64,000 nt of DNA, taken from the NCBI GenBank assembly GCA_902761975.1, contig CACWMG010000002.1:4179-68178 (forward strand). Direction: 5' to 3'. Positions 7,137 through 57,807 of this stretch are shown piece after piece. This DNA is from Candidatus Avelusimicrobium pecoris. Lineage in GTDB: Bacteria > Elusimicrobiota > Elusimicrobia > Elusimicrobiales > Elusimicrobiaceae. Made by a program: the position numbers and the translations under genes. The notes beneath the pieces are model-generated. The model had not been told where the DNA came from. It saw nothing but the letters and a program-made list of their open reading frames with translations, and did no database searches. Positions within the stretch are counted from its first letter, which is position 1, and the number at the start of each line of letters is the position of its first letter.

Positions 7137-7177
7137 AGTTATAGTGTAAAAAAAAATACGCTACTAGGCAAATAAAG

Positions 7178-7234
7178 TATAATGTAAATACAATTTGATT
7201 CTGTTTTTGGAAGCGTTTAAGAAACGCAGTGCTT
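7178..7234 (+). promoter_or_regulatory. -10 box plus 5' fragment of the pilin-leader RNA element (truncated copy)
   Basis: TATAAT then TACAATTTGATTCTGTTTTTGGAAGCGTTTAAGAAACGCAGTGCTT, near-identical to the reverse complement of ~56451-56508. Confidence 0.75.
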
Positions 7235-7244
7235 AGCAAAGCCC

Positions 7245-39317: not shown

Positions 39318-40019
39318 TTAATACACGTAAATAGTATCTAAGCCGCTTGCTCCTTTTGCTTTATTTGTTTCACTTTGGCACACTTTAGCTGCCAAAGAAG
39401 AGTCTGCATTCACCACCTCACACCGTCGGGCGTCCGGTAAGTAAGTAGCATGGTGTAAAATAGCTCTATATAATATTTCATTGTTCCAAATGCATACAAT
39501 TTCCGTGGAAGGAGCCGCTGAGAGATAACAGAATGCTTCTTGGCCGCCCCAAGAATATCTAAGATGTCTTTTGGATGTATTTTCGCTTTCTATGTTTCCA
39601 CTGGGCATACTAATATCCAGTGCCGAAAAATCATCTGCATATTTTTCATTTGCCAAGTAATATAATTCTTGAGCTTTTGCTATACTCTCAACCACAGTTT
39701 TTAATTGTACGAACCGACTTTTCATTACGGCTTTTTGGTATTGCGGCACGGCGACGGCGGCAAGAATACCAATAATCAGCACCACGACTAAGAGCTCAAT
39801 GAGGGTAAAGCCGCTATGCCCGCTATGTCCCGCATAGATTGCCGCCCGCAGGGTCGGGGTGACGGAGCGGGTGGTAAAGATGAACGATTTCCCCCTCACC
39901 CGGCACTGCGTGCCACCCTCTCCCTCCAGGGGCGAGGGGGAAAATAAGGTGGAGATCCCCGACGGAAACACTCGGGGATGACAGCCTTTTTTTATAACTA
40001 GATTTCTGTTTTGCATCAT
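39318..40019 (-). CDS. Type IV pilin (PilE-like) with 70-aa repeat-derived leader
   Basis: G|FTLIELLVVVLIIGILAAVAVPQYQKAV; AAGGAG RBS before ATG 40019; C-terminal Cys residues. Confidence 0.93.
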   Translation of the reverse strand: MMQNRNLVIKKGCHPRVFPSGISTLFSPSPLEGEGGTQCRVRGKSFIFTTRSVTPTLRAAIYAGHSGHSGFTLIELLVVVLIIGILAAVAVPQYQKAVMKSRFVQLKTVVESIAKAQELYYLANEKYADDFSALDISMPSGNIESENTSKRHLRYSWGGQEAFCYLSAAPSTEIVCIWNNEILYRAILHHATYLPDARRCEVVNADSSLAAKVCQSETNKAKGASGLDTIYVY

Positions 40020-40300
40020 ACGTTCTCCTTTTGGATGTTGGGTTGGCACCCAACCTATATTTCAATTTACCCGCTTGGAAAACGTATGCAAAAACGGCGG
40101 CTATACTCAGTGCCTGCGACAGTCCTGAGGATAACAGCCGTAGTTTCCCACCGCAGGGTGGGAAACACTCGGCACACACGGACCGTCGTCCCTGTGTGCC
40201 TGATATCGGCTGTTTTTGGAGTCGCAGACAACTCAATTGAGTGACCTGTATTCTTGCAATACAGTTCCAAAAACAAGTTAAATTGTACCCATAGTGTAGC
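40020..40300 (-). ncRNA. Putative structured cis-regulatory RNA leader with promoter, copy 1
   Basis: TGcTACACT -10 box; multi-helix fold covarying with 56220-56510. Confidence 0.65.
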
Positions 40301-55271: not shown

Positions 55272-56219
55272 CTATATTTTATTGCAAACGTCTAGAAAGG
55301 AATATTTTTCACACAATTGTTGATAAGTGCCCCAAGACGGATTGGGGCAGGGTGGTGCAACACAATAGCTTTCGTTTCCAGCACGCGCGGTACATGTGTT
55401 GTTCAAACATTGAAAAATAGAATAATAATATCCTTGGTTGCTTGCTAAAACGTTATTAGATCCATTAGAATATATATATTCCCTTCCGGAAGAGGATTGT
55501 AATGTATATGGGAAAGATCCAGCGCTATTTCCACTTAGCAAGTATAGCGTATAGTTCCCATGGGTTGGTCCGCCCGTTTGCCCTCCATTTGCTATACATA
55601 ATGGATCGTCCTTAGTTAATGCTTCGCAGTACACATTACCGGCAAAATTTTCACTATGGTTAAAGTAAATTCGGTAACGGTTGTCCAGTTTGGTACTCCC
55701 CACACTTACATATTCATGTGTATCAGTAGAGCTTAATTGTATGTCCGTGCCCTCCGGGATACTAATATCCAACTGGTCAAGTTTAGAGCTAGAGGCATAA
55801 TCGCCATTTGCCTCAAAATAAATTTCTTGAGCGTCTTTAACGGCCTTGGCTATGGGTTTTAAAGCCGCAAATCGACTCCTTAGAACCGCTTTTTGGTATT
55901 GGGGGACAGCTACCGCCGCTAAAATACCAATAATCAGCACGACGACTAAAAGCTCAATAAGGGTAAAGCCGGAACGCCCGCTATACCCCGCATACCGACC
56001 CTGCGGGGTGACGGAGCGTGCGGTAAAGCCGTGGGCTGTTGACTTCCCCCCTAGTGTGGGGGAAGTGGCACACAGTGCCGATGGGGGGTTAACCAATAAG
56101 GTTGCCTTATTTACAACCCCCTTGCCCCCTTTGAGGGTACTTTCCCCACAAGGGGGACAGATAACTACATGCTTATTTATTTGCGTGAATCCCCGCCGGG
56201 TGTTTTTGTTTTGCATCAT
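55272..56219 (-). CDS. Type IV pilin (PilE-like) with 84-aa repeat-derived leader
   Basis: G|FTLIELLVVVLIIGILAAVAVPQYQKAV; AAGGAG RBS; Cys-rich variable C-terminus. Confidence 0.93.
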   Translation of the reverse strand: MMQNKNTRRGFTQINKHVVICPPCGESTLKGGKGVVNKATLLVNPPSALCATSPTLGGKSTAHGFTARSVTPQGRYAGYSGRSGFTLIELLVVVLIIGILAAVAVPQYQKAVLRSRFAALKPIAKAVKDAQEIYFEANGDYASSSKLDQLDISIPEGTDIQLSSTDTHEYVSVGSTKLDNRYRIYFNHSENFAGNVYCEALTKDDPLCIANGGQTGGPTHGNYTLYLLSGNSAGSFPYTLQSSSGREYIYSNGSNNVLASNQGYYYSIFQCLNNTCTARAGNESYCVAPPCPNPSWGTYQQLCEKYSFLDVCNKI

Positions 56220-56510
56220 ACGTCTCCTTTTTAACGTTGGGTTGCACCCAACCTATAATTTCAATTTTTGCTGCCTTGGAAACGTACATAAAAACGGCTC
56301 CTATGCCCGAGTTCATTGAGGAAGACCCAAAGTATAACAGCCGTAGTCTGCCGTGCAAACGGCAAACATTCAGCATAACACAACTCAGGGATCAGCTTCG
56401 TCATGTTATGCTTAATTTCGGCTATTTTTGGACCTCAATGATACTTCTACAAGTACTGCGTTTCTTAAACGCTTCCAAAAACAGAATTCAAATTGTACCT
56501 ATAGTATAAT
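56220..56510 (-). ncRNA. Putative structured cis-regulatory RNA leader with promoter, copy 2
   Basis: TTGTAA-17-TATACT promoter; fold covarying with 40020-40300. Confidence 0.65.
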
Positions 56511-56544
56511 AAAAAAGGGTCCCGGTTACAAGGGACCCTTTTTT
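56511..56544 (-). terminator. Intrinsic terminator of the glc/HD-GYP operon, overlapping the pilin -35
   Basis: AAAAAAGGGTCCC..GGGACCCTTTTTT. Confidence 0.8.
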
Positions 56545-56559
56545 GAGGATATTAAAAAA

Positions 56560-57807
56560 CTACTCTTTGTCGTTCTCTATCATGCGGCGGAACGTAGCGT
56601 CATGCGCCGAGGAGTTGGCACTTTCAAAAGCGGCTTGGGTTTCGGCCGCGCCGGAGGCGGGTTGCTTTTTATTCACGGAAATGTGTGCGTATAATTTACG
56701 CACGGAGGGGTAAATTTTCTTAAAAGCGGCCACAATGCGTGGGTCAAACGACGCGCCCGACTCTTTTAAAATATATTCGTAAGCGTCCTCGGTTTTCCAC
56801 GCCTGTTTATACACGCGGAATTGACACAGCGCGTCAAACACGTCGGCCACGGTAATGATGCGGGCCTCTAACGGGATTTCTTCGCCTTTTAAGCCGTTGG
56901 GGTAGCCCTTGCCGTTCCATTTTTCGTGGTGGTATAAGCTCATTTTGTGGGCAATTTTAAGCACCTTAGAGTGCGCCCCTTCCAAAATGCGCCCGCCGTA
57001 AATGGTGTGGGATTTCATAATTTCAAATTCTTCGGGCGTGAGTTTGCCGGGCTTTAACAAAATGTTATCGGCCAGGGCCACTTTGCCAATATCGTGGAGC
57101 GGACTGGCGTTTTTGATAAGCTCAGAATCTTTGGTGCCCATGCCTAGCGCGCGTGCCAGTAGGTACGAAATAATGCTGATGTTTTTTAAGTGGGCGCGGG
57201 TGTCTTGCTGGTCGCGATATTCGGCCGTGATAGCCAGGCGGTAAATAGTTTCCAACTGGGCTACGTGAACGTCCTGGTATAGCTTTGCAATTTCAATGGA
57301 GCTACCCGCCAGGGTGGCCAGTAAGGTTAACAGGCCCTCGTCATTTTTATCAAAGGGGGCACCGTCTGCTTTGTTGACCACTTGGAAAACGCCCAGCACT
57401 TTGCCGGAGTTGTTTTTAAGCGGCACAGCCAGTAAGGTGTGGGTGCGGTAATCGGTTACCATATCCACATCTATAGAAAAACGGGGGTCTTCATACGCGT
57501 TGGGCAAGTTAATCACTTCGCCGGTGCGCGCCACGATAGAAATAATGTTGTTGCCGGCTAGCGGGACGCGGATTTCGGTATGTTCTAAGCCGCGGCCTTG
57601 GGCAATTTTGGACCACAGTTCGTTTTTTTCAATGTCTTTGAGGTAAATGGTACAGCGGCCCACATCTAACATGGCGGAAATTTGTTGGGCAATAATATCT
57701 AACAGTTTATCCAGGCGGATTTCGCCAGACGTGCGGGCCCCAAACTCCACCAAGAGTTTGAGTTTTTGTTCGGCGGTTAGCTTGTTGCTTTCGTGAAAAA
57801 TCTGCAT
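56560..57807 (-). CDS. GAF + HD-GYP phosphodiesterase (likely cyclic dinucleotide)
   Basis: GAF (NAYEDPRF, QVVNK); LHDIGK, HHEKWNGKGYP, VADVFDAL. Confidence 0.92.
   Translation of the reverse strand: MQIFHESNKLTAEQKLKLLVEFGARTSGEIRLDKLLDIIAQQISAMLDVGRCTIYLKDIEKNELWSKIAQGRGLEHTEIRVPLAGNNIISIVARTGEVINLPNAYEDPRFSIDVDMVTDYRTHTLLAVPLKNNSGKVLGVFQVVNKADGAPFDKNDEGLLTLLATLAGSSIEIAKLYQDVHVAQLETIYRLAITAEYRDQQDTRAHLKNISIISYLLARALGMGTKDSELIKNASPLHDIGKVALADNILLKPGKLTPEEFEIMKSHTIYGGRILEGAHSKVLKIAHKMSLYHHEKWNGKGYPNGLKGEEIPLEARIITVADVFDALCQFRVYKQAWKTEDAYEYILKESGASFDPRIVAAFKKIYPSVRKLYAHISVNKKQPASGAAETQAAFESANSSAHDATFRRMIENDKE

Follow-up and report, generated by a model that had tools for sequence, protein, structure and literature searches.

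A predicted bistable RNA leader upstream of pilin and other cell-surface genes in the Elusimicrobiaceae

Introduction

Two prepilin genes lie on the minus strand of a 64,000-nucleotide stretch of DNA, here called the window, that comes from the metagenome-assembled genome (1.24 Mb, 85.5% complete) of an uncultured gut or rumen member of the Elusimicrobiaceae. Each of the two genes is preceded by a long leader, and the locus raises the question of whether these leaders are copies of one RNA element, what that element does, and whether it serves pilins only. A first-pass annotation had read them as a covarying RNA of an undescribed kind that controls pilins, either as a switch or as an antisense-type system. 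Here we report on the structure, the distribution and the predicted behaviour of this leader, and on the explanations that can be offered for what sets it.

Results

The leader copies of the window

The leader shared by 40020-40300 and 56220-56510 was found to be real, as both copies (40298-40017 and 56508-56217, minus strand) can be aligned with each other over their full length of about 270 nt, from the -10 box to the Shine-Dalgarno (SD) sequence and the start codon (Table 1). The bounds 40020-40300 had located the first element, but the functional unit reaches the SD and start codon at 40017-40030. Each helix that had been named as covarying was recovered in the two copies, with the compensatory sequences as quoted, and both copies fold much better than shuffled sequence (z = -8.45 for copy 1 and -5.78 for copy 2). 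A -35 box was called by the promoter scanner for copy 2. In addition, an orphan 5' fragment of the leader lies on the plus strand; it is interrupted by REP-like repeats after P3, and no pilin motif was detected 3' of it.

Table 1. Positions of the leader copies, their segments and the associated genes in the window.
Feature	Position	Strand	Remarks
Leader copy 1, complete	40017..40298	-	-10 box TACACT 40293-40298; SD and ATG 40017-40030
Copy 1 segment 1 (P1a)	40265..40285	-	Predicted partner: segment 2 (OFF) or segment 5 (ON)
Copy 1 P2 and variable P3 hairpins	40231..40264	-	P2 40246-40264; P3 40231-40242
Copy 1 hypervariable P4a and segment 2	40207..40230	-	P4a 40221-40230; segment 2 UCCAAAAACAGCCG 40207-40220
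Copy 1 core hairpins P6 and P7	40143..40200	-	P6 40171-40200 (GACG tip); P7 40143-40166
Copy 1 segment 3	40111..40141	-	P5b 40131-40141, P8a 40125-40130, P4b 40111-40120; terminator left arm and loop, or antiterminator partner strand
Copy 1 segment 4	40090..40110	-	P8b 40106-40110; terminator 3' strand and U tract 40090-40105
Copy 1 segment 5 (P1b, anti-TIR)	40063..40089	-	Complementary to segment 1 and to the SD/start region
Copy 1 optional hairpin GGUUGGGU/ACCCAAC	40037..40055	-	Between segment 5 and SD
Prepilin gene 1	39318..40019	-	N_methyl motif at residues 68-90, behind a long in-frame leader peptide
In-frame insert in prepilin gene 1	39810..39986	-	
Leader copy 2, complete	56217..56531	-	Promoter TTGTAA-17-TATACT 56503-56531, -10 box 56503-56508; SD and ATG 56217-56229
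Copy 2 segment 1 (P1a)	56473..56495	-	
Copy 2 P2 and P3 hairpins	56442..56472	-	P2 56458-56472; P3 56442-56455
Copy 2 P4a and segment 2	56419..56441	-	P4a 56433-56441; segment 2 56419-56432
Copy 2 core hairpins P6 and P7	56346..56412	-	P6 56372-56412 (loop CUGAUCC, GAUC palindrome inside); P7 56346-56367
Copy 2 segment 3	56313..56344	-	P5b, P8a, P4b; P4b 56313-56321
Copy 2 segment 4	56290..56312	-	P8b, terminator 3' strand, U tract
Copy 2 segment 5 (P1b, anti-TIR)	56262..56289	-	
Copy 2 optional hairpin GGUUGGGU..ACCCAAC	56236..56253	-	
Prepilin gene 2	55272..56219	-	N_methyl motif at residues 81-104
In-frame insert in prepilin gene 2	55962..56192	-	
GAF and HD_5 (HD-GYP-type) gene	56563..57807	-	Directly upstream of leader copy 2
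Orphan leader 5' fragment	7176..7240	+	-10 box, segment 1, P2, P3

Comparison of the whole window with Rfam 15 at the gathering threshold returned tRNAs only, and when both copies were searched at E<=10 only weak, unrelated families were listed (E 0.68 to 8.5). In the full-text literature on Elusimicrobia, pilins and RNA motifs we found no paper describing the leader. The first impression that this is no known riboswitch is borne out by both searches, and the leader appears to be an RNA family without a description in the databases or the literature searched.

Both window pilins carry in-frame inserts of the kind that is present in roughly half of the leader-bearing pilins of the genome. These inserts are about 20-80 codons long, separate the short prepilin leader MxxKNTRRG from the G|FTLIELL cleavage site, and have the look of translated REP or MITE-type palindromes, with recurring peptides (VICPPCGE..LPPQG, CHSR..SGIP..GGDPRQ..SGMT and LNSFQHL..ILNQVQDD); some are flanked by RRGFT duplicated at either end. 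The GUUGGGU/ACCCAAC hairpin that had been described before the ribosome-binding site is present in both window copies, but by eye this hairpin or one like it occurs in only about 6 of 43 aligned copies of the source genome, and it is hence an optional part. Related GGUCAG..CCUGAC hairpins occupy the same site in a few other copies, and the optional hairpin may be another small inserted palindrome. It was scored as terminator-like by the scanner on the plus strand, opposite to the leader.

The promoters and neighbours of the leader vary. At least three promoter contexts precede it in the source genome, namely TATACT/TATAAT directly upstream, a TATGTTAAAATAG..GTAGTAAAA type and a GC-rich AGGAGG..GCGCA type, which suggests that it has been recombined behind different promoters. 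The gene directly upstream of copy 2 encodes a GAF and HD_5 protein, and a GGDEF-domain gene is located directly upstream of another copy on contig 3 (G000:C3:45870-46184, minus strand); given about 45 copies in the genome, such adjacency may be coincidence.

Distribution and downstream genes

Using nhmmer with a two-sequence profile, about 45 leader copies were found in the source genome, and a GFTLIELL-type pilin ORF lies 3' of about 40 of them. The same genome has 78 pilin-type N-termini (GFTLIELLVVV-like), of which 39 are preceded by the leader. Many of these 78 pilins have an identical 25-residue N-terminal helix; the leaders and the C-terminal parts have diverged. All full copies examined were in sense orientation and immediately 5' of an ORF, and a recognisable -10 box is present in most copies of the source genome.

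Of 121 Elusimicrobiaceae genomes, 107 gave a match to a covariance model of the leader, and these belong to three genera. Matches were found in 70 of the 71 genomes searched in the window's own genus, in all 34 of a second genus and in two of the five of a third, and in none of the 10 genomes sampled from seven other genera of the family or the 24 sampled from two other families of the order. The number of copies per genome ranged from 1 to at least 49. About 350 matches were listed in one search and about 900 in another, the latter covering 121 genomes with no more than 24 candidates scored in each.

In other genomes, Pfam searches placed the leader upstream of genes for GT2, GT9 and RgpF glycosyltransferases, a polysaccharide pyruvyl transferase, a sulfatase-domain, EptA-like membrane protein, an outer-membrane beta-barrel protein, a TRL lipoprotein and an HSDR_N-domain protein. 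Further targets, read from their N-terminal sequences without Pfam, are presumably a sugar-nucleotidyl transferase and a LicD-like protein. In several genomes with a single match found, the leader stands before a glycosyltransferase or outer-membrane gene, and the pilin link seen here therefore looks like co-expansion with the pilin family. The idea of a pilin-specific controller had to be given up, since only half of the pilin-type genes in the source genome have the leader and other surface genes have it elsewhere in the family. The leader is not pilin-specific, and the theme shared by its targets is the cell surface.

Core helices and their covariation

Alignment of full-length copies by MAFFT followed by RNAalifold gave P5-P7 only, because the variable helices were misaligned, and was replaced by anchor-based parsing and covariance-model alignment. 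The covariance model has 157 positions and describes the core, with P4a and the U tract as its ends, and 100 copies from the three genera were aligned to it. The nested helices P4-P7 were paired in 96.0% of cases, compared to 36-43% when the 3' partners were slid by 1-3 columns, and compensatory double changes were observed at 34 of the 37 pairs. The observed covariation score was reached by none of 500 shuffles; a set of 73 copies was also analysed. The covariation first noticed between two copies thus extends to the larger set.

The P4 helix is hypervariable: each of the central 8 of its 10 positions shows four Watson-Crick pair types, and 6 of these 8 are without any mispaired cell. Matches between P4a and the P4b of the same copy had a mean of 10.2 bp, versus 5.5 bp with the partners of other copies. 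The stretch from segment 1 to P4a consists of exactly two hairpins, P2 and P3, in 65 of 69 copies. The P3 sequences are all distinct, with 65 different ones among the 65 parsed copies, and sequence conservation is seen in segment 1 and over much of P2, including the GAAGA-type loop that P2 usually has.

Terminator and alternative pairings

The strand that follows P7, segment 3 (ACGGCUGUUAU, then P8a), is complementary to segment 2 (UCCAAAAACAGCCG), with which it makes P5 and its extension, and also to a downstream near-duplicate of segment 2 (P8b, AUA, AACAGCCGU). The latter pairing is a terminator hairpin with P4b in the loop, and a U tract follows its 3' strand AACAGCCGU. The alternative GCCGU/ACGGC pairing suggested at first pass is genuine and forms the base of this hairpin. 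Folded alone, the hairpin has a mean length of 49 nt, 19 bp and -22.5 kcal/mol. In 63 of 70 copies, at least five of the 8 nt that follow are U, and the tract was weak in the other 7. In an alignment that was not fitted to the terminator, this register was 86.7% paired versus 30-51% when slid, with double changes at 10 of its 16 pairs. For the terminator of the other two genera, the assessment covered anchor motifs plus the U tract rather than a folded hairpin. A simple terminator scanner made no call at the predicted hairpin in either window copy.

The P4 and P8 helices cross, with a spacing of 0-1 nt between P4b and P8b, and the crossing was judged to be more simply two alternative registers than a static, compact pseudoknot. 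A further alternative involves segment 1 (CUGUUUUUGGA) near the predicted 5' end, which is the exact complement of segment 2; this 1:2 helix was 89.8% paired versus 36-57% when slid. A third copy of the motif, segment 5 (UUCCAAAACAG), located 3' of the U tract, is another complementary partner for segment 1, and this 1:5 helix is P1. Native P1 pairs had 7.9 bp and non-native ones 7.6 bp, with no gain because both strands are conserved. For the 1:2 and 1:5 helices the support comes mainly from conserved complementarity, with little covariation. All of these pairings are made within one transcript, and nothing indicates the antisense-type system that had been offered as an option.

Segment 5 can pair with the SD and start region of the gene that it precedes, with a native mean of 8.9 bp versus 7.2 bp for non-native combinations and with many gene-specific matches. 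In a crude test under forced registers, in which a constraint was off by one base and some start sites were mis-called, the SD was paired at 0.55 versus 0.62, with no clear difference. Before GT2 genes in other genomes of the genus (L105 and L106), segment 5 (GUUUCCUCC) forms a perfect hairpin with the SD (GGAGGAAAC), and this predicted hairpin is the clearest example of a start-site masking layer.

Energetics and the proposed switch

At the U tract the mean energy was -85.6 kcal/mol for the terminating (OFF) register and -82.3 kcal/mol for the read-through (ON) register, and OFF was the lower in 53 of 70 copies; the gap of about 3 kcal/mol lies inside the error of the folding model. The most stable fold was then followed with growing transcript length in 98 copies of the three genera. 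For transcripts ending after P7 the 1:2 helix was present in 97 copies, and the antiterminator (P5) and the terminator base in none. Once P4b had emerged, 1:2 was present in none, the antiterminator in 91 and the terminator base again in none, and at the U tract the three counts were 70, 24 and 71, respectively. The preferred fold hence changes twice within about 60 nt of synthesis, as one would expect of an attenuator whose outcome is decided kinetically.

The anatomy of a switch, one of the possibilities raised at first pass, is present in the form of these two alternative registers. We consider the leader very probably to be a cis-acting bistable attenuator, with both transcriptional and translational control, in which six segments are arranged in two registers. 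The model builds on what was observed by computation, namely the helices with their covariation, the signature of a terminator, two registers of near-equal energy and the flipping with transcript length. In the OFF register, segment 1 (CUGUUUUUGGAA, near the predicted 5' end) would pair with segment 2 (UCCAAAAACAG-CCG), leaving segment 3 (ACGGCUGUUAU and P8a, with P4b as loop) and segment 4 (P8b and AACAGCCGU) to form the long intrinsic terminator with its U tract, and segment 5 would pair with the SD and start codon region (segment 6) and mask the start. In the ON register, segment 2 and the hypervariable P4a would zip onto segment 3 and P4b, extending P5, the closing helix of the P6/P7 three-way core, and removing the terminator; the freed segment 1 could then pair with segment 5 as helix P1 and leave the ribosome-binding site open.

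As the antiterminator is predicted to form first during transcription, read-through would be the kinetic default, as in zipper-type attenuators, and some input would tip the choice to termination. The input might be a protein or RNA by which 1:2 is stabilised, a ligand of the P5/P6/P7 junction, or the elongation rate.

A palindromic tip on P6

In 69 of 100 copies the apical loop of P6 contains a perfect palindrome of 6 nt or more, compared to 6.1 expected from shuffled loops (maximum 14); palindromes of 4 nt or more are present in 94 of the 100, compared to 38.7 expected. Six of the 100 copies are without a P6 palindrome, among them window copy 1 with its plain GACG tip, and the palindrome of window copy 2 is GAUC only. 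Among the P6 tips there are ten distinct hexamer palindromes, and the commonest layout, 2 nt + 6 nt + 1 nt, accounts for 40 of the 69 palindromic loops. In the P7 loops of the same 100 copies no palindrome of at least 6 nt was found. Judged from these sequences, the self-complementarity of the exposed loop looks selected and suggests kissing (loop-loop) pairing between leaders as its simplest explanation; the palindromic tip would allow one leader to pair with another.

Discussion

The leader described here is, on our model, an attenuator with two registers, and the explanations for what sets it differ in the input that they assume. One tentative explanation is a factor-dependent zipper attenuator, in which a protein or small RNA that acts on segment 1 or P2, or that blocks P4a, would stabilise 1:2 and bring about termination, with the antiterminator winning where the factor is lacking. 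The layout is that of the zipper-type attenuator cATTpLS20 (see below), including the default antiterminator and a factor proposed to act at a conserved upstream hairpin, and segment 1 and P2, with the GAAGA-type loop, are conserved in sequence beyond the needs of pairing. However, no factor emerged as a candidate, NusG is encoded once in the genome, without a paralogue, and a leader peptide is not conserved, the P2 AUG being missing in many copies.

Two specific kinds of attenuation or antitermination were tried and rejected. Leader-peptide attenuation of the trp type does not agree with the many copies in which the P2 AUG is replaced (ACG, UUUAAG and AUG-UAG variants) or with the lack of an SD before it. 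Antitermination of the RfaH/UpxY/LoaP type does not agree with the presence of only one NusG-domain gene in the source genome (85.5% complete).

It is also possible, if rather doubtful, that the leader is a ligand-sensing riboswitch, with the P5/P6/P7 junction as the aptamer and a metabolite or second messenger, for example c-di-GMP, that would stabilise P5 and hence the ON register. Two near-isoenergetic and mutually exclusive folds are a suitable platform for this, and a many-copy regulon of surface genes recalls the known c-di-GMP riboswitch regulons. The genome also has three GGDEF matches, one PilZ match and the GAF-HD_5 protein beside copy 2, which is circumstantial. Few unpaired junction nucleotides are conserved, however, conservation being concentrated in the switching strands, and this weakens the reading as a classical aptamer. 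No known aptamer in Rfam was matched; the RF01051 (GEMM-I) model gave no match in the source genome, and none in the control genomes either.

The double flip of the preferred fold within about 60 nt of synthesis means that timing alone could decide the outcome. A factor-free kinetic device of this type, in which the speed of elongation and pausing (NTP pools, growth rate) sets the fraction of termination, would give constant or growth-linked partial attenuation, and P4 might act as a toehold beside segments 2 and 3. We think it unlikely, as the conserved and elaborate architecture, with P2, P3 and the P6 palindrome, exceeds what a speed sensor needs.

The P6 palindrome would instead find a use if terminated leaders of about 215 nt acted in trans and paired with other leaders through this loop, by which expression among the many pilin genes could be coupled or made exclusive. 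The excess of palindromes of at least 6 nt in P6, their absence from the P7 loops and the ten different hexamers speak for such self-association, but the palindrome is lacking in 6 of 100 copies, including window copy 1, and many P6 loops are common by descent. We regard it as improbable that the leaders act in this way. That there is no switch at all, and that the leader is a static stabilising 5' UTR whose 5'-end pairing could shield the mRNA from decay, or a dispersed repeat or mobile element near pilin genes by chance, is very improbable, since the high copy number and the orphan fragment that would fit it are set against the sense orientation of all full copies checked, just 5' of ORFs and mostly with a -10 box in the source genome, the conservation of both alternative registers with covariation in the terminator, and helices that are hypervariable yet compensated, unlike those of a recently spread repeat.

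For the bistable attenuator as we prefer to see it, the significance lies in the combination of its parts. The domino layout of three alternating helix pairs would couple transcription termination to masking of the translation start, and most helices of this design are already backed by natural covariation. With its copy numbers, the family would rank among the more copy-rich cis-regulatory RNAs within single genomes, and few members of the lineage in which it occurs have been cultured. The leader suggests one layer of control shared by pilins, LPS and polysaccharide enzymes and outer-membrane proteins, which are the surface molecules that gut and rumen Elusimicrobia show to their hosts. As the palindromic loop looks selected, pairing of mRNA leaders with one another becomes conceivable. 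More speculatively, the leader could represent a new class of sensor RNA, either a riboswitch for a second messenger or envelope precursor or a self-recognising RNA that dimerises through its P6 loops; this we consider possible but on balance doubtful. If it is true, one RNA design would govern about 80 pilin genes along with LPS and outer-membrane genes of uncultured gut Elusimicrobia, either coordinating their expression or making it mutually exclusive.

Among known systems, partial likenesses can be found in several directions. In the dimerisation initiation site of HIV-1, the kissing loop of 9 nt is composed of 2 nt, a 6-nt palindrome and 1 nt. The P6 tip has the same 2 + 6 + 1 nt layout, with a self-complementary hexamer in a hairpin loop; however, the context is unrelated, the flanking bases in P6 are not consistently purines, and dimerisation of the leader is an inference only. 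A c-di-GMP-II riboswitch lies upstream of pilA1, a type IV pilin gene of Clostridioides difficile, and like c-di-GMP riboswitches the leader has a terminator platform before pilin and other surface genes. Unlike them, it is about three times larger, has a different fold and matches no Rfam model. The trp and his leaders of enterobacteria are built on successive alternative pairings (1:2, 2:3 and 3:4), the last of which is the terminator. The present leader follows the same four-segment logic with a 3:4 terminator, but it has no conserved leader peptide or tandem regulatory codons, and segments 5 and 6 are extra.

The closest system in mechanism is cATTpLS20, a zipper-type transcription attenuator of the Bacillus subtilis plasmid pLS20 (Gonzalez-Alvarez et al., NAR 2026, PMC13401043). 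In cATTpLS20 a central stem is extended when an upstream strand base-pairs with the terminator's 5' arm and loop, the two states are near-isoenergetic with the antiterminator as the default in vitro, and a factor that acts on a conserved upstream hairpin was proposed as the trigger (PMC13401043). Like cATTpLS20, the leader has a central stable stem, an upstream sequence with a weak helix of its own and a downstream intrinsic terminator; its upstream strand, here P4a and segment 2, is complementary to the terminator 5' arm and loop and would zip the central stem, and its two conformations are of similar free energy, here about 3 kcal/mol apart. It differs in that the core is the P5/P6/P7 three-way junction instead of a single long hairpin, in the addition of helix P1 and an anti-TIR layer for translational control, and in the palindromic tip of P6. 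It resides on the chromosome, numbers 1 to at least 49 copies per genome, and stands before single surface-protein genes of Elusimicrobiaceae, whereas cATTpLS20 stands before conAn1 in the conjugation operons of Gram-positive plasmids. By this analogy, the leader is predicted to work like a zipper-type attenuator and is not placed in the cATTpLS20 family, the likeness being drawn from mechanism.
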